64,000 nucleotides of DNA from an uncultured Mycoplasmatota bacterium (GTDB taxonomy: Bacteria > Bacillota_I > Bacilli_A > RF39 > UBA660), in assembly GCA_947652325.1 (NCBI GenBank), contig CANTCQ010000003.1, positions 64,890 to 128,889 on the forward strand, read 5' to 3'. The translations under genes were made by a program, and so were the position numbers. The notes below the pieces were generated by a model, which saw only the letters and a program-made list of their open reading frames with translations, did not search any database and was not told where the DNA came from. Below, piece by piece: positions 24,882 through 46,425 of the stretch (position 1 is the first letter of the stretch; every line of letters starts with the position of its first letter).

Positions 24882-25856
24882 ATGAAAAAAATAAAAATAT
24901 GGATGATAACAATTTTAATGTTTATCCCCAATATAGTCCTTGCTTATTCGAGCCAAGTTATAGTAGGAGGGCAAAACATTGGAATTAATATTCAAAGTGA
25001 TGGCGTACTTGTGGTTGGATTTTATAAAGTAAATGGAAAAGAAGTAAAAAGTAATCCACCTATACAAGTAGGAGATTATATTATGAAAGTGGGAAACACA
25101 GAAGTAACAACAATTAATGAACTTACAAATGCCATTGAAACCAATATGAAGGAAAATGAAGTTGTTTTAACTTATAATAGAGAAGGGAAAGAAGAAAAAT
25201 CAACACTTTCTTTAATAGAACAAGATAAAGTATTTAAAACGGGTCTTTACGTAAAAGACAGCATTACAGGAATTGGAACACTTACTTATATTGACCCTGA
25301 AACAAAAATTTTTGGTTCACTTGGTCATGAGATAATTGAAGCAAACTCTAATAAAAGAATCGAAGTGAAAACAGGAACTATTTTTAATAGTGTTATAACA
25401 GGAATTAATAAAAGTACCGATGGAACTCCAGGAGAAAAAAAAGCCAATTTTAAAACAACCGATGTTTATGGGACTATTTCAAAAAATACAAAATACGGTT
25501 TATTTGGAACTTATACTACAAAATTACCGGATAATCGAATACTAGAAGTAGCAAATCCCAATGAAATAAAGGTCGGAAAAGCAACAATCGAAACTGTTTT
25601 AGATGGTAATGAAATAAAAGAATACGAAATAAATATTACAAAAATCAATGAATACAATAAAATTAAAAATATATCATTTGAAATTACGGATAATGAACTT
25701 TTAGATAAAACTGGAGGAGTTGTCCAAGGGATGAGTGGAAGCCCAATTATCCAAAACGGAAAAATTGTGGGGGCTGTAACCCATGTTATAGTAGATAATG
25801 TCAAAACAGGATATGGAATATTTATTACCACAATGTTAGAAGAAGGCGAAAACTAA
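24882..25856 (+). CDS. spoIVB: SpoIVB signalling serine peptidase (S55) with PDZ domain
   Basis: Signal anchor, PDZ domain (GDYIMKVGNTEV) and S55 catalytic region (GSLGHEI ... GMSGSPIIQNGKIVGAVTHV). Confidence 0.9.
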   Translation: MKKIKIWMITILMFIPNIVLAYSSQVIVGGQNIGINIQSDGVLVVGFYKVNGKEVKSNPPIQVGDYIMKVGNTEVTTINELTNAIETNMKENEVVLTYNREGKEEKSTLSLIEQDKVFKTGLYVKDSITGIGTLTYIDPETKIFGSLGHEIIEANSNKRIEVKTGTIFNSVITGINKSTDGTPGEKKANFKTTDVYGTISKNTKYGLFGTYTTKLPDNRILEVANPNEIKVGKATIETVLDGNEIKEYEINITKINEYNKIKNISFEITDNELLDKTGGVVQGMSGSPIIQNGKIVGAVTHVIVDNVKTGYGIFITTMLEEGEN

Positions 25857-27749: not shown

Positions 27750-28209
27750 TATGTTACTTCTTTATTTTTTTATGGATGTTTGCTTTTATAATTATACTTC
27801 TTGGAAAACCAATCTTATTTTAGTTTCTCTTATTGAAAGAGAAAAACGTTTTTTTCCTTTTCTTTTCTATTTGACTGGAATAACTTTATTATTGCATGCT
27901 TCCATGAAACTATTTACCCTATTTTTTATTTTGTATATTTTAACTAAAAAAATAAGCATTGCGACACCTAATTTTAGAAGAAGTTTTTTATCCTTTTTTT
28001 TCCTCTATCTTCTATACCAATTCTTATCTTACCTTTTTTTTCAAAAAGTCATTTTTTCTTTTTCAGGTTTTCTTATTAATATTGCTTTTCTCTTTTTTAG
28101 TTATAAATTTTCTACAAAATCATATCATTTTGTAGGTGATGATAATGGACAATGTCATAACAGAAGCACAAAATCGGATAAAAAACAAAAGACTCAACTT
28201 TGTAAATAA
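27742..28209 (+). CDS. mreD: rod shape-determining protein MreD (polytopic membrane protein)
   Basis: Hydrophobic 155-aa ORF overlapping the mreC stop. The start may be GTG 27742 or ATG 27751. The call rests mainly on position. Confidence 0.6.
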   Translation: MSNMLLLYFFMDVCFYNYTSWKTNLILVSLIEREKRFFPFLFYLTGITLLLHASMKLFTLFFILYILTKKISIATPNFRRSFLSFFFLYLLYQFLSYLFFQKVIFSFSGFLINIAFLFFSYKFSTKSYHFVGDDNGQCHNRSTKSDKKQKTQLCK

Positions 28210-28765
28210 TAAAAAAACAATAAAATTAAAACCTTCTAAATATATATCGAATCTTTTTACAAGAACGCTTATTAGTGTTATTTTAGTTTTATTGTGCGCC
28301 ATTTTTATCAATATAAGTGATGCCAATCTTTTAACATTCAAAAACCATTTTTTTAATGAAACCCTTGCTTTTACCACAATCAATAATCTATATACAAAAT
28401 ATTTTGGAGAAATTGTCCCTGAAACGTTAAATAAAACAATTCCTGTTTTTGAAAGTGGCAAATCTTATTCTTCTATTGAACAGGTAGAAAACGCTTATAA
28501 ATTACAATTAAATTCCAATACTTTTTCTTTTTTAGAAAGTGGTGTCGTTGTCTTTTTAGGTGAAAAAGAAAATTTAGGCAAAACAATAATTGTACAAGGA
28601 ATTGATGGGGTAGATATATGGTATTCCAATATAGAAAATCACAATATAACCCTTTACGATTATGTAGAAAAAAATAATATGATTGGAGAATTTAAAGACA
28701 ATAGTGCTATATTAACATTTATGGAAAACGGAAATTATACAGGTTATGAAAAATATCTTTCCTAA
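28145..28765 (+). CDS. spoIVFA: SpoIVFA-like membrane protein with degenerate LytM/M23 domain
   Basis: One TM segment (LISVILVLLCAIFINI) and a C-terminal GVVVFLGEKENLGKTIIVQGIDGVDIWYSNI...MIGEF. It lies directly upstream of spoIVFB. Possible starts are 28136, 28139 and 28145. Confidence 0.6.
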   Translation: MDNVITEAQNRIKNKRLNFVNNKKTIKLKPSKYISNLFTRTLISVILVLLCAIFINISDANLLTFKNHFFNETLAFTTINNLYTKYFGEIVPETLNKTIPVFESGKSYSSIEQVENAYKLQLNSNTFSFLESGVVVFLGEKENLGKTIIVQGIDGVDIWYSNIENHNITLYDYVEKNNMIGEFKDNSAILTFMENGNYTGYEKYLS

Positions 28766-29525
28766 AATAAAAATAAATAGCGCTACTTACATTCTTTTTT
28801 TAAGTTTTTTACTCACTGGATTTATCAAAAACATTTTACTTATTTTTTTAATTGTTATCATTCATGAGATAGGGCATGTTTTCTTTTTAAAATATTTTCA
28901 TTATAAAATTGAAAAAGTAGAGATATTTCCTTTTGGAGGACTAACTACAACTAATAAATATATAAATTCTCCAATAAACAAAGATATTTTAATTTATTTT
29001 GGAGGTATTTTGTTTCAAATTCTTTTGTATTTTCTTTTTGTATTTATAAATCAAAAAGGATTTATAAATCAAAATACTTTTTCTTTATTCTTACGATACA
29101 ACAAAAGTATTTTCTTCTTTAATCTACTACCGATAAGACCTTTAGATGGAGGAGAAATCATTCATTTATTTTTACAAAAATTTTTTTGTTATCAGAAAAC
29201 ATTATTTATCTCTCATTATATTTCTGTTTTCTTTTTAATAGCATTTGTTTTATATAATATAAAGAGTAATTTAAATAATTATGTAATTGTTGCTTTTCTC
29301 CTTTATAGAACAATTGATTTCTTTAAAAAAAGAGTTTTTTTTCAAAATAAATTCTTATTAGAACGATTTATGTATACATTACCTTATAAAAAAATTGAAC
29401 ACAATGCTAAACAAGATATAAATAACCTAAAAAAAGAAACCCTTCATTTTTTTAAAGACCAAAACAAATACATTCATGAAAAAGAAGTTTTAAAGAGAAA
29501 ATTTGACATTCATTCGTTTCTTTGA
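28746..29525 (+). CDS. spoIVFB: SpoIVFB-type M50 site-2 metalloprotease
   Basis: The HEIGHVF (HExxH) motif lies in a TM segment, with NLLPIRPLDGG downstream. The position before rplU matches B. subtilis. Confidence 0.85.
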   Translation: MKNIFPKIKINSATYILFLSFLLTGFIKNILLIFLIVIIHEIGHVFFLKYFHYKIEKVEIFPFGGLTTTNKYINSPINKDILIYFGGILFQILLYFLFVFINQKGFINQNTFSLFLRYNKSIFFFNLLPIRPLDGGEIIHLFLQKFFCYQKTLFISHYISVFFLIAFVLYNIKSNLNNYVIVAFLLYRTIDFFKKRVFFQNKFLLERFMYTLPYKKIEHNAKQDINNLKKETLHFFKDQNKYIHEKEVLKRKFDIHSFL

Positions 29526-30601: not shown

Positions 30602-31729
30602 ATGCAATCCCAAAGAAAAGAAGAATTAAAACAAAAAATACTTTTTTCAACAGAAGCAAGTCTTATAAGTAAATATACAAACCAGAATATAGACACTGAT
30701 GAGGAAACAAGAAATTGTACAAATGTATTTTATTTTGATTCTGTTATTCAAAAAATAAATGCTGCTGAAATTGCTTTAATAAATGGAGAAACTAAATTTT
30801 TTACTTGTCTAGATTGGATAAACTTTAAAGAATACATAAATATTTTAAAAAATAAATACAATGAAGCATTAACACCACTTTCCGAAGCACAAGAAAAAGA
30901 AAATTATTTTCGAATTCTGCATCATTATAAATTTTTAACGTTATGTAGAAAAGTGATACACAAAGCAGAGCAAAAATATGGCGCAAACATAAAACTGTCT
31001 GAAATAATTCCAATTGGTAAAAATTTGCAAATATGTGTAAAATATAATTACATTATAGATAAATTAGCGGAGATAAAAAGTAAAAAAGATGTTACCATGC
31101 AAGAACAAAAATGGTATGAAAAATTGCAAAAAAGTAAAGAAGAAGTCGATAAAGAAGTATGGCAAGCATATGCATACTTATTTGGAAAGAAGAAATATAG
31201 TGAATGGTTGTCTTATTTAGAAAAAATGCTTAATAATATAAAAAAACTAGAAGAAATTATGGTTTTTGAAAAAATAATTTTTGCAACTTTCAATGAATGG
31301 AACATTTGGAAAGAAAATATCTACGTTTTAAAAGAAAAATATAACGAAACTCTAAATATGCTAGAAAATAACCAAATAAAAATAAAGATAGGCACACAAG
31401 AACAGGAATTTCTATATAGTTTAATAGAAAATATTGCTGTAATTGAAAATCGTTATCATGGTGGAATACCAGATGAAGAGATTGCAGAAATTATGAAATA
31501 TTTACAAATTATTTGTAAATATAATTATTATGTAAAAAAAGGATATATTAAAAATGAAAAAAGAGATGAAAATAATAGCACAATTATAATCAATATACAA
31601 AAAATTAAAGATGAAAAAGAAATAGATTACAAACAAGTGTTACAAGAAGCAAAAGAACTAATTTCAAATTATGAAAAAGCAATAGATTTTTTGTTTGGAA
31701 AGGAAAAAGAAGAAAAAAAAGCAATATAA
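30602..31729 (+). CDS. hypothetical protein with internal tandem duplication, occupying the spo0B slot
   Basis: 375 aa with two ~150-aa repeats that share FxTxxxWxxxKExIxxLKxKYNExL, LQIxxKYNY and LFGKxK. Confidence 0.55.
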   Translation: MQSQRKEELKQKILFSTEASLISKYTNQNIDTDEETRNCTNVFYFDSVIQKINAAEIALINGETKFFTCLDWINFKEYINILKNKYNEALTPLSEAQEKENYFRILHHYKFLTLCRKVIHKAEQKYGANIKLSEIIPIGKNLQICVKYNYIIDKLAEIKSKKDVTMQEQKWYEKLQKSKEEVDKEVWQAYAYLFGKKKYSEWLSYLEKMLNNIKKLEEIMVFEKIIFATFNEWNIWKENIYVLKEKYNETLNMLENNQIKIKIGTQEQEFLYSLIENIAVIENRYHGGIPDEEIAEIMKYLQIICKYNYYVKKGYIKNEKRDENNSTIIINIQKIKDEKEIDYKQVLQEAKELISNYEKAIDFLFGKEKEEKKAI

Positions 31730-31864: not shown

Positions 31865-32695
31865 ATGAGCAACTATCAATATTGTATATTAAAACTTATA
31901 ATAGATTATATCCGCCAGAATAAAGCAATAGATTTGAAGTTCATTGATAAAATAATTGAAATTGTAGTAAATGAAAAAGGCCTACATGATTATGTGAAAA
32001 AATTTCAACCCTATCAAGATGATTTTGTAATAAGTTATAATGTAATAACTAAAATAATAAGTGGAAATATAGAAAATATTATAAAAGACATCCCGCAAGA
32101 ATTTTTTTATTTAAATTATGATGATAGAATGTTAAATAATTTCTCTCATGTGGCGTGGTGTACGATACATGAACTTTACCATGCAAGAGATTATAAAAAA
32201 TGCATTATTAATCAAAAAGATATAGAAACTAAAATATTACGCGAATCTTATTATAAACCGTTAATAAAAAATTATATATTTTTAAGGGATAGGCCAAGAT
32301 TTCCTTTTGTAAGAAAAAGAATATGCAAGATACAAGAAAATCGATATCAATTATATAAAAGTTTATGGCATTTTGCTCCATTCGAAAGAATTGCGAACAT
32401 AGATGCGATTCAGGATATAGTTTCAATTGCTGAAGAATTGCGTTCCTATATTTTATGGAATTATATGACTTGTAGGCAACAAAATTTTTATTTAAATGCT
32501 TATAATTTATTAAAAGCAAATAATATAACTTGTAGTCCAACAAAGTTTTATTTAGAAAAGTATGATAAGAAACGGCAAGGAGAGTTTATAGAAAAAATGG
32601 GTAAAAATTTACCTTTTATAGACCGTTTGCGTTTAGGATTAGAAATAAAAGAGACTGCATCAGAAACTTTACTTCTTAATTTAATTAAAAAGTAG
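31865..32695 (+). CDS. hypothetical protein with HExxH motif (possible zincin-like)
   Basis: 276 aa containing WCTIHELYHARDY. No other motif recognised. Confidence 0.45.
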   Translation: MSNYQYCILKLIIDYIRQNKAIDLKFIDKIIEIVVNEKGLHDYVKKFQPYQDDFVISYNVITKIISGNIENIIKDIPQEFFYLNYDDRMLNNFSHVAWCTIHELYHARDYKKCIINQKDIETKILRESYYKPLIKNYIFLRDRPRFPFVRKRICKIQENRYQLYKSLWHFAPFERIANIDAIQDIVSIAEELRSYILWNYMTCRQQNFYLNAYNLLKANNITCSPTKFYLEKYDKKRQGEFIEKMGKNLPFIDRLRLGLEIKETASETLLLNLIKK

Positions 32696-34886: not shown

Positions 34887-34915
34887 TTGACTTTACTATG
34901 AAATTAGTTTATATT
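34887..34915 (+). promoter_or_regulatory. sigmaA-type promoter of the tad operon
   Basis: TTGACT-N17-TATATT, 22 nt upstream of the flp ATG. Confidence 0.65.
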
Positions 34916-34937
34916 TATTATGATAGTAGGTGGAGAT

Positions 34938-35147
34938 ATGAAAAGTTTGAATACGAAAGGGCAAGCTTTAGTAGAATATGTACTCATTGTGACTATAATT
35001 AGTGTCATTACTATTGCAATTGTAAACTATTTTGGCGGTTATGTGAAAGATTCTATCACAAAAACTTCTTGTTCTTTAGTAGACCAAGAGTATGTTCCAG
35101 GCAGTAAACCAGGAGAAGGGGAATGTAAAGAAAAAAAGAATGAATAA
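34938..35147 (+). CDS. flp: Flp-family type IVb pilin
   Basis: 69 aa. MKSLNTKG|QALVEYVLIVTIISVITIAIV fits the Flp G/xxxxEY processing motif followed by a hydrophobic helix. The start is set at the Met after the SD aggtggag. Confidence 0.8.
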   Translation: MKSLNTKGQALVEYVLIVTIISVITIAIVNYFGGYVKDSITKTSCSLVDQEYVPGSKPGEGECKEKKNE

Positions 35148-35160
35148 ATGAGGTGATAAT

Positions 35161-35511
35161 ATGCAATTATCCAAGAAAGGGCAAGCTTTGGTTGAATTTG
35201 TAATAATATTACCTATATTTGTTTTTATGATATTTGGAGTCATAGATTTAGGGAAAATACTTTATATGAAAAATAATTTAGAAAGCCAAATGGATGACAT
35301 TATTACTGCTTACAAAGAGGGAGAAACAAAAAACGAAATAATCGAAAAATTAAAATTAAAAAAAGAAAACATTATCCTTTCTATTACAGAAGAACAAAAA
35401 TATTTAAACTTCCAAATAGAAAAAGAAACAGACCTTATTACTCCTGGTTTAAATAGCTTATTAGGAAATCCTTATAAAGTATCGGCGAATCGAGTGATTT
35501 ACGATGAATAA
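35161..35511 (+). CDS. tadE: TadE-like pseudopilin
   Basis: MQLSKKGQALVEFVIILPIFVFMIFGVIDLG matches the TadE N-terminal domain pattern. Confidence 0.75.
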   Translation: MQLSKKGQALVEFVIILPIFVFMIFGVIDLGKILYMKNNLESQMDDIITAYKEGETKNEIIEKLKLKKENIILSITEEQKYLNFQIEKETDLITPGLNSLLGNPYKVSANRVIYDE

Positions 35512-35884
35512 AAAAGGGCAAACTTTAATTGCATTTGTCATTCTTTTACCAGTGTTACTTCTTCTTTTAGCATTTGTAGTCGATACTGGTTTATTGTTAC
35601 AAGAAAATACGAAACTCACAAATACTACAAAGACAATTTTAAAAACAATGTATGATAAAAAAGGAGAAGTCCATTTTGAGAAAGATATAAAAAATCTTTA
35701 TCAAAAAAACAATATACCTACAGAAAATATAAAACTAACAGTACATGCGCAAGAAGTAATAGTAGAAAACCAATATAGTATAGAAAGTATTTTTGGCAAA
35801 ATAATAGGGATAAAGAATTATCCTTTAAAAATAAAAATGCGAGCATTTAAAAATACAGACAAAATAATTATCAGTAAAGAATAG
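35504..35884 (+). CDS. TadE/TadG-like pseudopilin
   Basis: MNKKGQTLIAFVILLPVLLLLLAFVVDTG. Its start overlaps the stop of the previous gene. Confidence 0.7.
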   Translation: MNKKGQTLIAFVILLPVLLLLLAFVVDTGLLLQENTKLTNTTKTILKTMYDKKGEVHFEKDIKNLYQKNNIPTENIKLTVHAQEVIVENQYSIESIFGKIIGIKNYPLKIKMRAFKNTDKIIISKE

Positions 35885-35895
35885 AGGGAACTTTT

Positions 35896-36696
35896 ATGTC
35901 AAAAACAAAAGGAAAATCAATATGTATTTTTTCAGCAAAAGGAGGAGTAGGAAAAACAATAACCACCATCAATATGGCGGGAATATTTGAACATTTAGAA
36001 AAAAAAGTGTTAATCGTTGATTTAGATTTATCAAGTGGAGGAATTAGTGTTGCTTTAAATCGTCCATTTGAAAAAACAATCTATAATTTTGTAGATGACT
36101 ACAATAACAATCGATATAAAGACTTTAAAAGCTATATTACAAAATACGATGAATATATTGATATATTGCCAAGCCCAAAAGACCCAAGGCAAGCCAATAA
36201 GATTGATTCCAAATACATCGATATATTAATTGATAAAGCAGAATCAAACTATGATATTGTTTTGCTTGATACAAATCATATTTTAAATGAAATAAACATT
36301 GTAACATTAGATAAAGTAGACAACATTTTATTTGTGATGACAAACGACCCATTAGACATAAAAAATATGAAATCTTTGCTTAGTATTTTTCATGATTCCA
36401 ATATTACAAATTTTAAAATTCTTTTAAACAATAGCACCAATCCATTTAAAGATTATTTTTCTATATTTGATATTAGAAATATTATTAAAGCCAATATTGA
36501 TTATACTATTACTTCTAGTTTTTATTTAAAAAATATGGATTCTTATGTAATGGATGGACAAATCATTACATTATTAAAAAATATGCCTTCTACCTTTAAT
36601 AAAGATTATGAAACCTTTATGATGATTGCCTTAGATACAATAGGACACACTGAAAAAGAAAGAAATAAACTAGAAGAAGGGGAAACAAATGAATAA
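35896..36696 (+). CDS. tadZ: TadZ/CpaE-like ParA/MinD-family ATPase
   Basis: Deviant Walker A SAKGGVGKT and the VLLDTN motif. It sits before the secretion ATPase. Confidence 0.75.
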   Translation: MSKTKGKSICIFSAKGGVGKTITTINMAGIFEHLEKKVLIVDLDLSSGGISVALNRPFEKTIYNFVDDYNNNRYKDFKSYITKYDEYIDILPSPKDPRQANKIDSKYIDILIDKAESNYDIVLLDTNHILNEINIVTLDKVDNILFVMTNDPLDIKNMKSLLSIFHDSNITNFKILLNNSTNPFKDYFSIFDIRNIIKANIDYTITSSFYLKNMDSYVMDGQIITLLKNMPSTFNKDYETFMMIALDTIGHTEKERNKLEEGETNE

Positions 36697-38029
36697 AACA
36701 AGTTTAATAGATGCCTTTAATATTGAAAGAAAAACCACGAAAATAGAGGCAGTTACAGATTATGAAATTTTCTCTGATAAAAAATTATTAGATGAATTAA
36801 GAACACAAATTATCGAAAATATTATCGACAAAGAAATTCCAGAAGATAAAATATTAAATGAATTTATAAATGATGAAATAGATGCTACTATTGAAGGATA
36901 CGATTTAACAAACTTAGAAAGAAGCCATTTATTCAATTTAATAGACAATGAAATAAATGGCTATGGACCAATAACAGAACTTTTAAAAGATAAAAATATT
37001 ACGGAAATTATGGTAAATAGTCCTAATGAAATTTATATTGAAATTGATGGACAATTGATTAAAGATGAAAGTATTTCCTTTATTAACGAAGAACACATTG
37101 TAAGAACCATACAAAGACTTATTGAACCACTGGGAAGAACAATAGATGCTGCAAATCCTATGGTGGATTCTAGACTGCAAGATGGCTCTCGTATTAATGC
37201 TGTAATTCCGCCTCTTTCAACAAGAGGCCCAATCATTACAATTCGTAAATTTAAAGAAACAATGAAAAATATCGAAGATTTAATTCGCATAGGTTCTTTA
37301 ACTCCATATATGGCAAGATTTTTAGATGCATCAGTCCGCGGAAAATTAAACATTATTGTTTGTGGAGGAACAGGGAGTGGAAAAACATCTCTTTTAAATG
37401 TATTAAGTGGCTTTATTAGTAGTCAAGAAAGAATTATAACCATTGAGGATGCTGCAGAACTTCATTTGCACCAAGAACATGTAATTTCTTTGGAAACAAG
37501 AGTAACGAATTATGATAGTACAGGAGAAGTGACCATCCGAGATTTAGTCAAAAATTCGCTTCGTATGCGACCAGATAGAATCATTGTAGGAGAAGTGAGA
37601 GGAAAAGAAGCATTTGATATGTTGCAAGCCATGAACACTGGTCATGATGGGTCACTCACAACTTTACATGCAAATGGACCTTTAGATGCCCTAAATCGTT
37701 TAGAAACGATGGTATTAATGAGTGGCTTAGATATTCCAATAAAAGCAATTCGGGAATACATAATAAACGCGATTGATTTAATAGTGAATATTGAAAGAAT
37801 GAGTGATGGAAAACGAAAAATTACATCCATCTCTGAAATTGAAGGTTTTCAAGAGGACCGTATAAAACTAAGAGAAATATTTAAGTTTACTCCTAAAGGT
37901 TTAACAGACAATGGTGAAGTGGATGGAGAATTTATGTTATACAAAACAACTCCTCGAGTATACAAGAAAATAGTGGCCCGAGGAATAAATGATTTAGAAG
38001 ATATGTTTGGAAAAACAAATAAAAATTAA
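36689..38029 (+). CDS. tadA: TadA/CpaF type II/IV secretion ATPase
   Basis: Walker [10 protein letters not shown], Asp box ITIEDAAEL, Walker [13 protein letters not shown] and His box [13 protein letters not shown]. Confidence 0.93.
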
Positions 38030-38048
38030 AAGAAAGGAGTAATCTAAT

Positions 38049-39053
38049 ATGAAAAGTGCACTTTTAAGTACTTTCTTAATTCCTATTATTTTAATTTGCC
38101 TTGTCTTAGGAATTATATATTCTATTCTAAAACAAATGCATTTTACGAAACTAGAAAAAAGATTTGAAGCATTTAGTTTACAATCCGATAAAGAACAAAT
38201 AATTTCTATTTTTGATGAGATGTCAATTTTGTTTTGGAAAACCATCCATAAACTTTCTTTTCTATTTGAAAAATCACAAGTTTTAACAAAATATGCAAAA
38301 AAATATGAACGATTTATTCCCTTTGAAGAAAAAGAAAGAAAAGAAAGCATAGATTATATAGCTATTAAGGTAATTATAGGAATTGTTTTCGTTCTATTAA
38401 ATATAGCAAGTATATTTATACATAAAAAGACAAATTTCATAACCTTATTCTGTTCCTTTTTAGTTGGTTTCTTTCTTCCAGATATTACGTTAATGACAAA
38501 ATTTAAAAGCAAAAGAAAACAAATTGAAGAAGAATTACTAAAAGCTATTATTATTATGAACAACAGTTTTAAATCGGGTCGCAACATTATGCAAGCAATT
38601 CAAATAGTAAAAACTGAACTAGAAGGTCCTATTGCAGATGAATTTAAAAAAATTTATTTAGACATCACTTATGGATTAAGTTTAGAAGTAGTATTCAATC
38701 GTTTTTATGAAAGAGTAAAATTAGAAGATGCCAAATACATCGCTTCTTCTCTTACTTTATTAAGTAAGACTGGAGGAAATATAGTGAGCGTTTTTGAAAG
38801 CATCGAAAAATCTTTTTTTGATAAGAAAAAACTTCAAAATGAAATGAAAAGTTTAACGGCAGCAAGTGTTTTTGTCTTTCGGGTCCTAGTTGCTTTACCT
38901 CTCTTTTTTTCTTTCATCATATTTATTTTAAATCCCACTTATTTTAATCCACTATTCTCATCAGGATTCGGAATATTACTTTTACTAGCCATTGTATTTT
39001 TATATATAAACTACATTTTGATAATTAGAAAAGCAATGAAGGTGAAAATGTAA
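38049..39053 (+). CDS. tadB: TadB (type II secretion system F-domain) inner-membrane platform protein
   Basis: 334 aa with N- and C-terminal TM segments flanking a T2SSF-like cytoplasmic domain (MNNSFKSGRNIMQAIQ). Confidence 0.8.
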   Translation: MKSALLSTFLIPIILICLVLGIIYSILKQMHFTKLEKRFEAFSLQSDKEQIISIFDEMSILFWKTIHKLSFLFEKSQVLTKYAKKYERFIPFEEKERKESIDYIAIKVIIGIVFVLLNIASIFIHKKTNFITLFCSFLVGFFLPDITLMTKFKSKRKQIEEELLKAIIIMNNSFKSGRNIMQAIQIVKTELEGPIADEFKKIYLDITYGLSLEVVFNRFYERVKLEDAKYIASSLTLLSKTGGNIVSVFESIEKSFFDKKKLQNEMKSLTAASVFVFRVLVALPLFFSFIIFILNPTYFNPLFSSGFGILLLLAIVFLYINYILIIRKAMKVKM

Positions 39054-39757
39054 TGAAAAAAAATAAGCATTTAATGTATAGAATATATAGAAAAAAAAAT
39101 ATAATACGCATTCAAAACAAAATGAGGCTTTTAGGAACGAATTTAAAATATGATGAAGCTACATTTTTAAATACTCGAATGATTTTGACGATTATTTTAT
39201 TTCTTTTACTATTATTATTTTCTAACCATGGTTATATTTTAGCACCTATATTTGCCATTGTCTTTTATTTAATTTGTGAATATATTGTTTTAGATATTCC
39301 TATAAAAAAAAGAGGCATAGCATTAGAAGAGGAGGCAATATTCTTTTTTGAAGTATTACTATTAACCTTAGACTCTAGCAAAAATTTAAAAAGTGCATTG
39401 GAACTAACCACACAGAATATAAAGAGTGAACTATCAAGCGAATTTCAAAAAATGTTAGAGGAAATAAAACTTGGGAAAAGTTTTACAGAAAGTTTAGAAG
39501 CCATGAAAGCACGAATACCGAGTGACACAATTAAGAATATTATTTTAAATTTAACCGAATCAAGTATATTTGGAAATAGTATTACAGAATCATTAAACAA
39601 TCAACTTGATTATTTGCGGGACAAAAAAATGTTCGAAATAAAAGCTGAGATATCAAAACTTCCTACTAAAATAAGCATATTATCTGTTATCTTTTTCATT
39701 CCCATTATGTTGTTGATTATTCTTGCCCCCGTTTTAGTAGAATTTTTAATTGGATAG
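39053..39757 (+). CDS. tadC: TadC platform protein
   Basis: 234 aa. It is a T2SSF-like paralogue, and its start overlaps the tadB stop (ATGTAATG). Confidence 0.75.
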   Translation: MKKNKHLMYRIYRKKNIIRIQNKMRLLGTNLKYDEATFLNTRMILTIILFLLLLLFSNHGYILAPIFAIVFYLICEYIVLDIPIKKRGIALEEEAIFFFEVLLLTLDSSKNLKSALELTTQNIKSELSSEFQKMLEEIKLGKSFTESLEAMKARIPSDTIKNIILNLTESSIFGNSITESLNNQLDYLRDKKMFEIKAEISKLPTKISILSVIFFIPIMLLIILAPVLVEFLIG

Positions 39758-39782
39758 CATCTAAAAAGATGTTATTTTTTTG
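39756..39782 (+). terminator. rho-independent terminator after tadC
   Basis: agcatct-aaaa-agatgtt stem (one G-U pair) followed by a T run. Confidence 0.7.
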
Positions 39783-39840
39783 TAATTTTATAAAAAATTA
39801 TGATAGAATAAAAGGAAAAGTTTTATAGAGGTGAAATGCG

Positions 39841-42123
39841 ATGTATAAAAAAATTTATGTTGATAAAATAAACGATTTACCAGAGCCATACGATGCAAAA
39901 CTAAATAAGGAAGCATTTGAAAAAATGGCGAATGGCGATACTTCGATTAAAAAGGATATTATTGACCATAATTTAAGATTTGTTTTAAATCAAATTTATA
40001 ACTATTTTTCCAAAACTTCTTATGAAACAAATGAATTATTTAGTATAGGAACAATAGGATTAATAAAAGCTATAGATTCATTTGATATTAAAAAAGGAAA
40101 TGCATTTGCCACGTATGCCACGAGATGTATTCATAATGAAATTTTAATGTTTATGCGTCACGAGAAAAAATTTTCAAAAGAAGAAAGTATGAATAAATCT
40201 TTATATCATGATAAAGATGGAAAGGAAATAATTTTAGAAGAAATTATTGCTGATAATAATATAAATATTCTAGATGATTATATCGTAACCGAAGAAATTG
40301 AAAATAACGAAAAATTAATAGAAAAAATGAAAGAAATTTTAAATTTTTTAAAAGAACGTGATAAACAAATAATTTTATATTTATACGGATTGACAGATGG
40401 AAAAAAACATTCTCAATCTGAAGCAGCAAATAAATTTAATTTGTCGCAAAGCATAATTTCTCGAATCGAAAGAAAGTGTTTGAAACTTTTAAAAGAAATA
40501 TTATATAATGAAATGAACACCACAATAGAATATAGCGATTTTGATACGACTGAAATAGATCCATTATTAAATTCAAAATTATTTATAGAATTTATAAATT
40601 TATTTCCAGAAGAAATGCACAAATCGTATTGTATTGAAAAAGGGATAAGAATAAAAAATAAAAAAGTATCGAAAATTATTAATTCTAAACTAACTAATAA
40701 TAGTAAACAAGAGATAAAAACTATGGAATCTCATTTAAAATTTATGATAGATGAATATTTTAATGGAATAAAACAAAACAAAAATAAAAAAGAAATTTTG
40801 GAAAGTTTAATATCTAAAATGAAAAATAGAAGTTTATTATTTCGTTTTTCTGAATATTCAAATATGGAAATAATATATGCTTTAAGATATTTAACAGAGG
40901 AAGAGCAGCAAATTATTATAAAAAGACATGGACAGAATTTAAACAATTTTTTCTCATTTTCAAAAAAGAAATATCAAAAACAATTTAGAAAATATACACT
41001 TGCAGTACAAAACTTAGAAATAATTCTTTTCTTAATAAAAAATAAAGAACGTTTTAAAAAAGATTTAGAAATATCCGAAGATAAAAGTCTTATCGATAAT
41101 CTAAAATATTTAACAATAAAAGAAAAAAACATTTTGTGTTCGGGGGGGGGGTATACTAAGGAAACAAAAACATATTATGACATACTTGCAATCATAAAAA
41201 GAAAAAAAGAAGGAAAAATATGTAAAGTATCTCCTTTATTTCAAAAATATGCAAAAGAAGAAATAAGAATGGCATTACCTATACTAAGTAAAGAAGAGCT
41301 AATACTATTTCTAAGTCGTCATGGAGAGAATTTAGAACAAAAAAATCCTTGGCCAACAGATCAAAAATCTAGTTATTATTATAGGCGTTATGCAAAAATT
41401 GTAAAAAAAATAATAAAGCATATTGAAAGTAAAAAAGAAGTATTAGTTACTGAATTTTGTCTAAAATATGGATTTAATTCAGTGAGCGAAGCAAAGGAAA
41501 CCATAGCCTTATTAGCAAAATCGGAACAAGATATTATTTACCTAAAATGGGGTGAAGACTTAAATTTTGTAAAATCATTTCCAAGAAATAATATAAAAAA
41601 ATCATTTGCTGAGTATTCATGGGAGTATGAAGAAGCCATTTATCATTTAAAACAAATACAAAAAAAACAAAATGCAAATAGAAAAGAAGAGCAAATAGTC
41701 ATTATTGACCAACCATCAAAAAAAATAAAAAATGATTTACTAGAAGAAAAACTATCTTTAAAAAAAGCTGAAATCTTTAATAATTTATTTGAAGTATATC
41801 AAACACTTATTGATAAAAAAATCATAATAGAACTAATTAATAAAACAGTAGTAAATTTACGCATTTCAAATAATGAATATTTTCATATCATCGAAAATGA
41901 AATATTTATGAATTTAGCAAATCAATACAAAGAAAATATAGATAATGAAAAAGGACACATGCTAATAAACCACATAAAAGAAATGTTTTTGATAAAGATT
42001 AAAGCAAAAAATCCCCTATATACAAAAGAAAAAATTGCATATGCGATAGAAGAAGTTTTTAAAAATTATACGGGAACGAGTAATTTTGAATTCGAAATAA
42101 CTCTTTATTTAAAAAATAGGTAA
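39841..42123 (+). CDS. sigmaE/sigmaK-like sporulation-type sigma-70 factor fused to a ~530-aa C-terminal extension of degenerate region-4-like repeats
   Basis: Residues 1-225 align by eye with B. subtilis SigE/SigK: LPEPYD, MANGD, HNLRFV, SIGTIGLIKAIDSF, ATYATRCIHNEILMFMR, and region 4 LKERDKQIILYLYGL...SQSIISRIERKCL. Four further modules follow (ALRYLTEEEQQIIIKRHGQNL, NLKYLTIKEKNILCSGGGY, ALPILSKEELILFLSRHGENL, ALLAKSEQDIIYLKWGEDL). Confidence 0.8.
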   Translation: MYKKIYVDKINDLPEPYDAKLNKEAFEKMANGDTSIKKDIIDHNLRFVLNQIYNYFSKTSYETNELFSIGTIGLIKAIDSFDIKKGNAFATYATRCIHNEILMFMRHEKKFSKEESMNKSLYHDKDGKEIILEEIIADNNINILDDYIVTEEIENNEKLIEKMKEILNFLKERDKQIILYLYGLTDGKKHSQSEAANKFNLSQSIISRIERKCLKLLKEILYNEMNTTIEYSDFDTTEIDPLLNSKLFIEFINLFPEEMHKSYCIEKGIRIKNKKVSKIINSKLTNNSKQEIKTMESHLKFMIDEYFNGIKQNKNKKEILESLISKMKNRSLLFRFSEYSNMEIIYALRYLTEEEQQIIIKRHGQNLNNFFSFSKKKYQKQFRKYTLAVQNLEIILFLIKNKERFKKDLEISEDKSLIDNLKYLTIKEKNILCSGGGYTKETKTYYDILAIIKRKKEGKICKVSPLFQKYAKEEIRMALPILSKEELILFLSRHGENLEQKNPWPTDQKSSYYYRRYAKIVKKIIKHIESKKEVLVTEFCLKYGFNSVSEAKETIALLAKSEQDIIYLKWGEDLNFVKSFPRNNIKKSFAEYSWEYEEAIYHLKQIQKKQNANRKEEQIVIIDQPSKKIKNDLLEEKLSLKKAEIFNNLFEVYQTLIDKKIIIELINKTVVNLRISNNEYFHIIENEIFMNLANQYKENIDNEKGHMLINHIKEMFLIKIKAKNPLYTKEKIAYAIEEVFKNYTGTSNFEFEITLYLKNR
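41142..41151 (+). repeat. G10 homopolymer inside the sigma gene (codons S-G-G-G)
   Basis: tcGGGGGGGGGGtat. With G9 or G11 the frame reaches a stop within 16 or 3 codons respectively (my translation). Confidence 0.95.
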
Positions 42124-42219: not shown

Positions 42220-43863
42220 ATGGATTTAGAAGAAATATTAGCATTTTTAAATAATATTGATAAAAAAAAAGAAGGAGACTTTGAAAAAAAATGGCATTCA
42301 TTTGAAAATATTTATTTAAGTGAAGAACAAATAAATATTTTAATAAAAGATCCAATATGCCAAAGAGTATCAAAGTATATATTTGAATCTATAGAAGAAA
42401 TTTCAGAAAATTCCTATGAAAAATATATAAAAAATAATAATTTATTAAGAATTTTAAACAATATCTACATAGAAGAAAATAGTAAAAAAATGCAAAAATC
42501 ACTTTCTCAAGAGGAAGAGTTAGAATTATTAAAACAAATGGCAAATGGTGATAAACAAGCAAGAGCGAAGTTAATTGAAAAGAATTTGGGTTTAGTCAAA
42601 TTTTGTATCAATAATCTTGCAAAGTATTATAATTTGTCAAATATTTCTCTTGCTAATTTATATGATGATTTATTTCAAGAAGGAGTAGAAGCTCTTATAA
42701 AAAGTTTAGATAAATTTGATTATACAAAAGGATACAGAATAGCAACTTATACAATTTGGAGTATTAAAGCGGCCATTAATCAATATTTAGAAAAACAAAG
42801 ATTTCAATTAAAAGTTAGTAGAAATAAAATGGTTGAAATTAAAAAAATGCATAAAATCATCGGAGAATTATCTTTAGAGGGATATAATAATTTTTCATCC
42901 CAAACACTAACTGAAAAATTAGAAGTTGCAAAGGAACAACTAGCTGAAAATATACAATTATGTCAAAGAACAATATATTTAGATTCTTTTTTAGAAGAAA
43001 CAAATTTACATGAAGTGTTAAAAAATGATGGAATAGAAATTGAAAAAGATTATGAAAAAAAAGAATTTTATCAAACATTCAGAGAGATAATTAAAAATTG
43101 TGTTACAAATAAAATTATAAAAGAGCAAGAATTCCTAGTAATTTCTTTGCGTTATGGGCTAGAAGATGGAGAGCCAAAAAAATACAAGGAAATTGGAAAA
43201 ATAATAGGTAAAACTTGGCAAAGAGCACAACAAATTCATGATGAAGGTATAAAAAAATTGAAAAAATATAATAAAATAAAAGAATTTGGTCAAGAAAATA
43301 ATTTATATATGAATAGAAAAAGAAAACCAAAGATTATACATTCAATTGCAGAGTTAAAAGAGAAATATCCACCTGTAACCGATGAACAAATACAAGAAGG
43401 ATTGTCCTATTTAACAAAAAAACAACAAGAAGTAATATATAATTGTTTAAAAGAACAACAAGAAATTAAATCCTCATCAAAGGAATACCAAAGTTTAATA
43501 AATGGAATAAGAAAACTAGAGGAGTACATAGTAAATAAATTAAAAATAACTCCCCAATTAGAAACGGAAATATTGGGGAATCTAAAACTTTTAACAATAA
43601 CAACTTGGCAAGAAGAATTAAAAGAACAACAAAAAAGTCTAATTCATAGAAAATACCAAACTGTATATGGAGATATAATTCAATCACAAGAATTAGAAAA
43701 CAGTATAAATCAAGCTTTTGAAAATCAAAAGTTAGAAAGTTCATTTAGAAGTAAAAAATTACAAATAGAAGAAGCATTTTTTATTATATTAATAGAAAGA
43801 TTAAAAAAAACAACAGAGGAATTTGAATATAAAAATTTACTTCTTATATTTTTAGAATATTAG
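42220..43863 (+). CDS. RpoD-like sigma-70 family protein with ~110-aa N-terminal and ~180-aa C-terminal extensions
   Basis: Region 2 (LIEKNLGLVKFC...DLFQEGVEALIKSLDKFD...YRIATYTIWSIKAAINQYL), a region 3-like segment and region 4 (EQEFLVISLRYGLEDGEPKKYKEIGKIIGKTWQRAQQIHDEGIKKL). Confidence 0.8.
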   Translation: MDLEEILAFLNNIDKKKEGDFEKKWHSFENIYLSEEQINILIKDPICQRVSKYIFESIEEISENSYEKYIKNNNLLRILNNIYIEENSKKMQKSLSQEEELELLKQMANGDKQARAKLIEKNLGLVKFCINNLAKYYNLSNISLANLYDDLFQEGVEALIKSLDKFDYTKGYRIATYTIWSIKAAINQYLEKQRFQLKVSRNKMVEIKKMHKIIGELSLEGYNNFSSQTLTEKLEVAKEQLAENIQLCQRTIYLDSFLEETNLHEVLKNDGIEIEKDYEKKEFYQTFREIIKNCVTNKIIKEQEFLVISLRYGLEDGEPKKYKEIGKIIGKTWQRAQQIHDEGIKKLKKYNKIKEFGQENNLYMNRKRKPKIIHSIAELKEKYPPVTDEQIQEGLSYLTKKQQEVIYNCLKEQQEIKSSSKEYQSLINGIRKLEEYIVNKLKITPQLETEILGNLKLLTITTWQEELKEQQKSLIHRKYQTVYGDIIQSQELENSINQAFENQKLESSFRSKKLQIEEAFFIILIERLKKTTEEFEYKNLLLIFLEY

Positions 43864-44006
43864 AAAAAAGAGTAAAAGAAACATATCCAGGAATATCAAA
43901 AAAACAAACGCAAGAAATACGAAATAGAGTAATAGAAAATTATAGTGGGCAACCGCAATTAATTATAAAACTTGCGCTTCATTCTAAACAGTAATAAAGG
44001 AAAAAA

Positions 44007-44036
44007 GTCTTAAAAAGAAGTTTTAAGGCTTTTTGT
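44007..44036 (+). terminator. rho-independent terminator
   Basis: gtcttaaaa-agaag-ttttaaggc stem (one G-U pair) followed by a T run. Confidence 0.75.
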
Positions 44037-44074
44037 TTGAATAAGCGTATGGTAAAATAAAGAAGGTGGTACTT

Positions 44075-45666: not shown

Positions 45667-46425
45667 TTGGAAGCAAAAGATTGTATTTTACTTTCTCCAG
45701 AAAATGAAAGAATAAAGTGTAAATTTTATGAATTGGAAGAAAAATGCAAAGAAATAATTTATGAAAAAACGAAAATAGATTTTATAAGAAAAGAAGAATT
45801 TGATAAATTTAAAACAAAATATACTTATTTTAAACCCTATTTTGATTTTGTTTTAATAAAGTTAGGTTATAGAATTCAAAATCCTTACGAGTTAGAAAAT
45901 GCTTCTATGTATGAAAAAGATGGATATATACATTTGTTTTCTTTAAACACTGAATTGGAATTATTTCCACCTTGTGATGATGAACACATAGGATTATATC
46001 ATGTAACAGAAGATGAATTGACTTTATCTATGGTAGATGAAAATTTAATAGGGATTAAACCAAAAGGATATGGGCATACATTTATTTCGCGCTTAATTCT
46101 TAATCAATTATTTTTAAATGACCGAAGTCTTTATCAAAAATTTTTAGAAGAATGTAAAGTAAGAAACCGTAATTTTAATTTTTTTAATTTTACTGATTTC
46201 TTAATTTATCAGAAACCATTTTTAAGAGTAGAAAAAAATGTCAAAAATGAAAAAAACAAACAATTTGCTGTATTTAAAAATTGTAGTTTTTATTATGAAA
46301 TACAAGGATATCATGATAATATATCAGAAAAACAAAAAAGATTTTTAGAAACGCTTATAATAAAAAATATAATAAAAAACGAAAACTTACATATTCCTGA
46401 AAAAGAAAATAGGAGGATATTTTAA
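45667..46425 (+). CDS. hypothetical protein (252 aa, TTG start)
   Basis: ORF with SD aaaggtga. No motif recognised. Confidence 0.45.
   Translation: MEAKDCILLSPENERIKCKFYELEEKCKEIIYEKTKIDFIRKEEFDKFKTKYTYFKPYFDFVLIKLGYRIQNPYELENASMYEKDGYIHLFSLNTELELFPPCDDEHIGLYHVTEDELTLSMVDENLIGIKPKGYGHTFISRLILNQLFLNDRSLYQKFLEECKVRNRNFNFFNFTDFLIYQKPFLRVEKNVKNEKNKQFAVFKNCSFYYEIQGYHDNISEKQKRFLETLIIKNIIKNENLHIPEKENRRIF

Follow-up and report, generated by a model that had tools for sequence, protein, structure and literature searches.

Analysis of a 64,000-nt stretch of contig CANTCQ010000003.1 from an uncultured Mycoplasmatota bacterium (the whole stretch is hereafter called the window) revealed an open reading frame (ORF) for a giant sigma factor, located exactly where the initial annotation of this DNA had placed it. 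The deduced protein carries a complete sigma domain at its N-terminus followed by a modular appendage, and this architecture very probably defines a lineage-specific and apparently undescribed family of sigma factors. The gene and the parts of its sigma domain are located as follows.

39841-42123, + strand: whole giant sigma gene, 760 aa plus stop codon (ORF listing; exact protein on 13 contigs in the same context)
39841-40515, + strand: complete sigma domain of the SigK/SigE clade, aa 1-225, without a pro-sequence (NCBIfam)
39961-40170, + strand: sigma region 2, aa 41-110 (Pfam PF04542, 48 bits against a cut-off of 24)
40339-40497, + strand: genuine sigma region 4 with its helix-turn-helix (HTH), aa 167-219 (Pfam PF04545, 44.5 bits against 24.1)
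39780-39809, + strand: promoter-like site TTGTAA-18-TAGAAT with TG, upstream of the giant sigma gene (consensus scan; candidate only)

A ribosome-binding site, GAGGTG, is found 7 nt 5' of the ATG, and no start codon intervenes between this ATG and the in-frame stop before it; therefore an N-terminal extension cannot be encoded. Both Sigma70_r2 and Sigma70_r4 scored above the Pfam gathering score, which places the 760-aa protein in the sigma-70 family, and a Pfam scan of residues 226-760 gave no match. Comparison with the NCBIfam models indicated that the best match is the SigK model NF004471 (180.1 bits, cut-off 252; residues 6-224 of the protein against profile positions 22-231), followed by a second SigK model, TIGR02846 (170.4 bits against 298.65), and by the SigE models NF006158 (150 bits against 339; residues 5-219, profile positions 29-235) and TIGR02835 (144.5 against 348.6), while the SigG and SigF models were far behind with about 70-83 bits. 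The protein thus stays below the SigK and SigE equivalog cut-offs, and the sole NCBIfam model passed by the sigma domain was the superfamily model TIGR02937. The SigI model NF006176 was not reached either (49 against a cut-off of 260), nor does the protein have the minimal sigma2-sigma4 core of the extracytoplasmic function (ECF) type, the best models SigK, SigE, SigG and SigF spanning 210 aa including region 3.

In these alignments residues 5-6 of the protein correspond to position 22 of the SigK profile and to position 29 of the SigE profile; therefore the protein starts at the mature N-terminus of SigK/SigE and has no inhibitory pro-sequence of about 20-29 aa. Residues 1-225 are in consequence, as the initial annotation had read them, a complete SigK/SigE-like sigma factor devoid of a pro-sequence. 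The nearest short relatives of the sigma domain are proteins annotated as SigK with at most 44% identity, and a scan of genome contigs yielded nothing beyond a SigK-like gene of Ca. Fimenecus, which is unrelated and 37% identical. Judged by its profile matches, the sigma domain belongs to the SigK/SigE clade as a paralogue without a pro-sequence; it is closest to SigK and is not an equivalog. The genome of L010, one of the related loci described below, holds tandem SigK-like giant paralogues, which argue that the SigK-like giants are lineage-specific paralogues and not necessarily the sporulation sigma-K.

Repeat modules in the C-terminal extension

A hidden Markov model (HMM) of the module was seeded with three of the repeats listed in the initial annotation and iterated locally over the proteins recovered by a HMMER search (see below). 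The iterated module has 57 positions and occurs in about 310 copies in 54 proteins. For scoring, an HMM was built from 309 modules of other proteins, the cluster of the 760-aa protein being left out, and 999 shuffles of the extension served as background, the best of which scored 11.4 bits. The following parts were delimited in the extension.

40516-40851, + strand: linker domain, aa 226-337, a probable cryptic 'module 0' (phmmer, hhalign)
40855-41025, + strand: module M1, a three-helix unit derived from sigma4, aa 339-395 (HMM)
41071-41220, + strand: module M2, an eroded relic, at about aa 411-460 (fragments alone score)
41248-41421, + strand: module M3, aa 470-527 (HMM, structure model and Foldseek)
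41479-41658, + strand: module M4, the tail-proximal subtype, aa 547-606 (HMM)
41674-42120, + strand: conserved tail domain with six helices, aa 612-760 (family alignment and structure model)

With the cluster-excluded HMM, M1 (aa 339-393) scored 50.7 bits, M3 (aa 470-524) 55.2 bits and M4 (aa 550-604) 35.7 bits, while M2 scored 1.1 bits; with the family HMM, M1 reached 54.2 bits. Four repeats had been claimed for the extension, of which M1, M3 and M4 are robust and M2 is, by its score and fragments, the relic of an eroded module; the colinear 789-aa protein of L010 has four intact modules. M4 belongs to a distinct subtype, and a near-identical subtype is present in other members of the family. 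The linker at aa 226-337 was matched by phmmer directly after region 4 in 12 other members, and hhalign brought it into register with the profile of the modules (P=1.3e-3); the linker probably represents a fifth module that has diverged further.

The consensus of the module, YSKEEIdeAIskLseeekeIIYlRYGedLd...yykfYkkiikKlKk, is about 57 aa long, and the median period of the modules is 77 aa. No repeats were found at the DNA level in the extension, therefore the array is ancient. A recent expansion or slippage of the array was considered and rejected on the same absence of tandem repeats in the DNA.

Origin of the modules from sigma region 4

When all sigma domains were masked during its construction, the module HMM still found its best match inside sigma domains at the genuine region 4, with E-values of 1e-7 over the whole module in member P0013 and of 7e-4 in the 760-aa protein (aa 159-212). 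A match of the module HMM to the genuine region 4 of the 760-aa protein was also obtained at aa 161-184. Scanned singly against Pfam, 13 of 108 modules matched Sigma70_r4_2 and 12 matched Sigma70_r4, and every other Pfam family was matched by at most two of the 108. The sequences of PDB entries hit by the module profile were almost only sigma factors at region 4, FliA being the best (E=0.025). Alignment of the module alignment with the true region 4 of the family by hhalign gave a probability of 94.9% (P=4.5e-8) and covered the region-4.1 half only.

The AlphaFold2 (AF2) model of M3, calculated from the 108-sequence alignment, has a predicted confidence (pLDDT) of 93.2 and shows helices at positions 7-16, 19-29 and 45-67, with an ordered loop at positions 30-44, where the first helix of the HTH would sit. 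Foldseek comparison of this model with the PDB returned sigma domain 4 in nearly all of the top 50 entries, with query-normalised TM-scores of 0.55-0.70 and E-values that were weak, as expected with a 68-residue query; the neighbours include sigma4 bound to the phage proteins G1 ORF67 and gp39.

Both helices of region 4.1 are retained in the modules, as is an R-[Y/H]-G motif whose counterpart in the alignment is the RFG of sigma-70, which we take to be R562-F563-G564 in the numbering of E. coli sigma-70; in place of the first HTH helix the modules have an N-P-[W/F]-P loop. In the alignment with FliA, the positions that in sigma-70 presumably contact the -35 element are occupied by Tyr or Lys, or fall in the loop. 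Neither the AF2 model nor hhalign, where the second half was left unaligned, revealed in the modules a complete HTH with -35-reading residues. Because the first HTH helix is lost and Tyr or Lys stand at the recognition positions, it is unlikely that the modules read promoter DNA as sigma4 does.

The profile comparisons and the modelled fold together show that the modules descend from sigma region 4. This agrees with the initial annotation, which had held the extra modules to be degenerate region-4 copies without the HTH, followed by a distinct tail: the HMM built with masked sigma domains, hhalign, the Pfam scan, the PDB profile search and AF2 with Foldseek are five independent tests that all point to region 4.

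The C-terminal tail domain

The tail is placed at or near the C-terminus in about 20 other members, and the tail of the 760-aa protein is 57% identical to that of P0009. Its AF2 model (pLDDT 89.4) consists of six helices. No significant match to the tail was obtained in the PDB profile search or with Foldseek against the PDB and BFVD, and its alignment by hhalign with sigma domains, region 4 and the modules was non-significant. Two phage sigma factors head its BFVD list with E-values of about 1-2, which are not significant, and the last 35 residues of the tail faintly resemble the start of the module, the resemblance extending over 15 residues. A jackhmmer hint that some C-termini are like regions 3-4 was set aside, as it probably reflects profile drift through the region-4-like modules.

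Two forms found in L010 bear on the standing of the tail: in one the tail is fused directly to a sigma domain without modules (628 aa), and the other, a protein of 339 aa, consists of two tails only. On sequence and modelled structure the tail is treated here as a new domain independent of the modules.

The composition of the extension allows another role for the array. With a pI of 9.3 and a net charge of +22 the extension is basic, the C-terminal helix of the modules averages +2.6, and the modules come from a DNA-binding domain of which they keep the equivalent of the recognition helix. The last helices might then contact AT-rich DNA beyond the -35 element, as the C-terminal domain of the alpha subunit does on UP elements, and so contribute affinity or specificity in a genome of about 27% GC; holoenzyme structures place the C-terminal exit from sigma4 at the -35 element. 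The loss of the first HTH helix in the AF2 model and the substitutions seen in the FliA alignment speak against this upstream DNA binding; basic, K-rich proteins are, moreover, normal in AT-rich genomes, and the tail, the tail-only form and the sigma-plus-tail form would be left unexplained. We regard such a DNA-binding array, although it is the main rival of the reading proposed below, as unlikely.

The family of giant sigma factors

When the extension alone served as query in an exhaustive HMMER search of 1.84 billion cluster representatives, 60 clusters (at 50% identity) were matched at E<1e-3, many of them represented by proteins of 900-1,600 aa and with up to 12 matched stretches. With 60 clusters the distribution of the family is narrow. 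The members carry 1-17 modules, or 0-17 when the sigma-plus-tail forms are counted. Every full-length member begins with a sigma domain and the type of core varies: SigK-like group-3 cores are found in the 760-aa protein, P0013, P0020, P0023 and P0045, RpoD-like cores with regions 1.2, 2, 3 and 4 in others (e.g. P0024, 286 bits on RpoD_Cterm), and more divergent cores are also present (e.g. P0027).

The domain order of the 760-aa protein is the same in its colinear homologues, namely the 789-aa protein of L010, P0013, P0020, P0023 and P0045. Among the SigK-like members the identity is 33-40% for the sigma domain, 17-38% for the modules and 24-42% for the tail, so that the appendage is about as conserved as the sigma domain. 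Independent assemblies yielded the identical 760-aa protein on 13 contigs, each time with tadC on one side of its gene and a second sigma gene on the other.

These data also bear on the suspicion that the extension is non-functional or artefactual, that is, an assembly fusion or a drifting repeat tail. Some family members do contain stops or frameshifts and several come from low-coverage metagenome assemblies, but the ORF is identical in 13 contigs, the architecture is conserved at about 35-40% identity with the appendage as conserved as the sigma domain, the AF2 models of module and tail are confident and 60 clusters share the arrangement. The joining of two separate genes by misassembly, which the initial annotation had named as grounds for abandoning its proposal, is excluded by the identical contigs and the conserved appendage, and the artefact reading as a whole is largely refuted and highly improbable.

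No model covering the module or the tail was found in NCBIfam, Pfam, PHROGs or PADLOC, and the extension had no match in PADLOC and PHROGs. Scans of metagenome contigs with the tail and module alignments and a scan of viral contigs gave no confirmed relatives. A word-filtered homologue search with the extension returned the protein itself and one fragment, the K/E/N-rich sequence swamping the filter, and the module alignment scored nothing in it. Full-text searches of the literature revealed no description of sigma factors with C-terminal region-4 repeat arrays or of giant sigmas.

Several other loci of the family show particular gene arrangements. At L004 5736-5738 (also in L006 and L007) a 1,405-aa giant sigma is preceded in frame by a 193-aa ORF with region 1.2; a single TAA separates the two ORFs (...GKRIVEGDE*AAKILAEANLRLV...) and was seen in several independent assemblies. 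Pseudogenisation, a split of the gene or recoding could explain this in-frame stop. Six successive family ORFs extend from tadC to ruvA at L010 7532-17659, including SigK-like giants of 789 and 927 aa and an RpoD-like gene split into ORFs of 267 and 345 aa. At L016 4367-9303 a 549-aa RpoD-like sigma ORF shares 16 nt with an ORF of 1,100 aa that is read in another frame and consists of 11 modules without a sigma domain; here the array may be a polypeptide of its own, or a frameshift may join it to the sigma. A 1,225-aa member with an RpoD-like core lies at L015 7001-10678 in the dcw cluster between ftsW/spoVE and murG, with no Tad link.

Genomic context

The genes adjoining the giant sigma gene and the signals found around them are as follows.

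34920-39757, + strand: Tad/Flp pilus cluster with Flp pilin, two TadE-like proteins, CpaE-like ATPase, TadA, TadB and TadC (ORFs, Pfam TadE, precomputed T2SSE/T2SSF annotation)
42220-43863, + strand: second family member, with a divergent RpoD-like sigma at aa 86-358, an eroded module at aa 387-434 and a truncated tail (Pfam, NCBIfam)
44004-44039, + strand: terminator-like AT-rich hairpin with a T-run between the second sigma gene and ruvA (RNAfold -12.1 kcal/mol, 14-bp stem)

The second sigma gene (42220-43863) encodes 547 aa. The initial annotation had credited it with one extra module, which is indeed present at aa 387-434 in eroded form (14.6 bits), together with a copy of the tail. As it has both module and tail, the two sigma genes of the window are both members of the family. 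A commoner allele of 591 aa, on 18 contigs, has a complete tail (39 bits). The sole difference between the window and L001 over 7.8 kb is a 1-nt deletion (CC to C) at 43842-43843, which frameshifts the gene so that 547 instead of 591 aa are encoded and the last third of the tail is lost. Either a frameshift peculiar to the strain or an error in sequencing could account for this deletion.

Genomic surroundings were retrieved for eight other members of the family. In L004, L008, L010 and L013 one or more giant sigma genes occupy the same slot between tadC and ruvA, which contains one gene in L008 and L013, two in the window and six ORFs in L010. In L012 two giant sigmas (1,607 and 1,090 aa) follow tadC, and the flanking genes differ (ftsW/spoVE, spoIIP). 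With the window included, family genes follow tadC in six of the nine contexts.

A promoter and terminator consensus scan of the window gave site counts not above the expectation from shuffles, so that its sites are candidates; they include a sigma-A-type promoter 5' of each of the two sigma genes. In the stretch from the tad genes to the sigma genes no terminator-like structure was detected before the hairpin at 44004-44039, which was missed by the consensus scan, having an AT-rich stem, and which is likely to be an intrinsic terminator. Since the giant sigma gene lies at the distal end of the Tad cluster and no terminator precedes the end of the second sigma gene, the sigma genes are probably co-expressed with the pilus machinery and may be distal members of the tad transcription unit.

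The Flp-type pilin gene of the cluster, at 34920-35147, encodes 75 aa with a KGQALVEY motif. A promoter-like site, TTGACT-17-TATATT, lies just 5' of flp at 34887-34915, and the tad-sigma gene cluster probably begins here.

The window is otherwise an ordinary Firmicute chromosome of about 27% GC with hrcA, dnaK, dnaJ, mtaB, recD2, xseA and proS, and further with radC, mreC, an M23/M50 peptidase pair, obg, ruvA, ruvB and queA. The SpoIVB peptidase encoded at 24882-25856 scores 308.6, above its NCBIfam equivalog cut-off of 305.25. Downstream of mreC/mreD an M23-like protein and an M50 peptidase are encoded at 28136-29525, the same position as that of spoIVFA/spoIVFB in Bacillus. A SpoIVFB homologue had been announced about 10 kb upstream of the giant sigma gene; an M50 peptidase (28746-29525) following an M23 protein does lie there, but neither protein of the pair matches any NCBIfam equivalog. 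The host seems to form spores or to descend from a spore-former. Three ORFs had no match in Pfam, NCBIfam, PADLOC or PHROGs: those at 30602-31729 (375 aa) and 31865-32695 (276 aa) lie between the M50 peptidase and obg, and that at 45667-46425 (252 aa) between ruvB and queA.

The peptidase genes touch on an idea put forward in the initial annotation, that control normally residing in the pro-sequence had moved to a C-terminal decoy or autoinhibitory array. The sigma4-like modules would then, for example, compete with the true sigma4 for the beta-flap tip or mask sigma2/sigma4, thereby replacing the pro-sequence. Region 4.1 is the part of sigma that contacts the beta-flap, the modules keep its two helices together with the R-[Y/H]-G motif, and the sigma domain has no pro-sequence. 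Such a replacement does not account for the same appendage on RpoD-like sigmas, where there is no pro-sequence for it to replace, and on at least one other sigma type, nor for 0-17 copies where each core enzyme has one flap, or for tails that stand alone or directly on a sigma, and the tandem paralogues of L010 also weigh against it; in addition, the M50/M23 pair and the SpoIVB equivalog leave room for a conventional pro-sigma-K pathway elsewhere in the genome. C-terminal regulatory extensions are known in ECF sigmas (PMC7671368, PMC7730460), but sigma-K without a pro-sequence is common and is known in C. difficile (PMC5025042). The proposed shift of control was therefore not upheld, and autoinhibition by the array, while possible, is improbable.

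The position of the locus likewise bears on a role as a trap, in which the array, mimicking sigma4, would capture phage appropriators, anti-sigmas or activators and so protect the housekeeping sigma or couple their presence to sigma activity. The tandem paralogues, variable copy numbers and frequent disruptions amount to birth-and-death dynamics that would fit such a role, as would the sigma4 complexes with G1 ORF67 and gp39 among the Foldseek neighbours, this surface being a known target. The locus, however, is core-chromosomal between tad and ruvAB and not a defence island, the extension has no PADLOC or PHROGs match, and no relatives were found in the scan of viral contigs. A trap of this kind is still less probable than autoinhibition.

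Proposed mode of action

We propose tentatively that the N-terminal 225 aa would act as an ordinary sigma factor, binding core enzyme and recognising promoters like SigK/SigE, and that the appendage would be a device for protein-protein interaction. The module array would serve as a scaffold or spacer of variable length and the tail as the partner-binding end, possibly through tail-tail association, as the two-tail and sigma-plus-tail proteins of L010 may indicate. Array and tail together would tether, sequester or oligomerise the sigma factor and so set its availability, or its localisation, post-translationally, the gene probably being expressed along with the Tad pilus machinery. Taken as a whole, architecture together with scaffold or tether control of sigma availability, the statement falls somewhat short of an even chance, and the tethering mechanism on its own is rather doubtful.

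Several observations weigh against this proposal. The structure searches with the tail gave no neighbour that is informative, and the analysis turned up no partner of the appendage; that the array packs rigidly is assumed; and the basic extension suits nucleic-acid binding equally well. No Tad link was found in L011, L014 and L015, so that three members stand apart from the pilus genes, and of the six contexts with a Tad link five represent a single syntenic locus (Tad-sigma-ruvAB), hence are not independent in phylogenetic terms. Disruptions of family genes, namely the in-frame stop of L004, the splits in L010 and L016 and the loss of 1 nt from the second sigma gene of the window, suggest relaxed constraint on some copies.

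The arrays may alternatively be multivalent mimics of sigma4, the modules binding sigma4 ligands such as the beta-flap tip of other core enzymes, anti-sigmas, activators or phage appropriators, and the tail transducing or anchoring; this we hold to be distinctly unlikely, though less so than autoinhibition in cis. If true, it would represent a previously unknown mode of sigma control, an integrated decoy or RNA-polymerase sponge linked to Tad in spore-forming gut Firmicutes.

Comparison with known systems

The domain plan of sigma-70 factors, sigma1.1-2-3-4, is regarded as essentially fixed, the known accessory regions being pro-sequences at the N-terminus, inserts that are not conserved and, in some ECF sigmas, sensor domains at the C-terminus. 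The giant sigmas, of 760 to about 1,600 aa, break this plan: domain 4 has undergone up to 17 duplications, the copies have lost the HTH and a new domain closes the array, and the same appendage is common to SigK-like, RpoD-like and other sigma cores. Should the array bind the beta-flap or proteins that target sigma4, it would constitute a new principle of sigma competition or sequestration; should it bind DNA, a new extension of promoter recognition in very AT-rich genomes. The linkage to Tad points to a concrete candidate regulon, and module and tail would provide domain databases with two new, confidently folding domains.

The closest resemblance is to SigK and SigE. The 225 aa align end-to-end, SigK is the best NCBIfam match and the host carries sporulation genes including the SpoIVB equivalog, while the 760-aa protein stays below the equivalog cut-offs, lacks the pro-sequence and bears a 535-aa appendage of which none is described in SigK/SigE. 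The sigma-K of C. difficile is likewise without an inhibitory pro-sequence (PMC5025042), but it is of ordinary length, is timed by excision of the skin element and has no C-terminal repeat array.

SigI has a C-terminal region that regulates it or binds a partner. The extensions of SigI and of ECF sigmas are SnoaL, TPR, Zn-finger or SigI_C domains, none of them an array derived from sigma4, and the core of the 760-aa protein, being SigK-like, differs from both. A C-terminal non-sigma region with a regulatory or partner-binding role is nevertheless shared with ECF sigmas such as the SnoaL-type ECF56 (PMC7730460, PMC7671368).

A sigma4-like protein that no longer reads promoter DNA has a precedent in gp33 of phage T4, a co-activator that sits at the beta-flap. 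The likeness may be one of function, as gp33 is a single small phage protein that acts in trans, and no match to it in sequence or fold was found, though no search aimed at it was made. In B. subtilis the gene of the sigma-28 class factor, sigD, stands at the 3' end of the fla/che operon and its product is controlled by a separate anti-sigma factor, FlgM, the sigma factors of the FliA type being of ordinary length. There, as possibly here, where giant sigmas follow tadC, an alternative sigma factor is encoded at the distal end of the operon for an appendage machine. The likeness to SigD, which is FlgM-controlled and of ordinary length, would thus lie in the possible working of the system and not in family membership.

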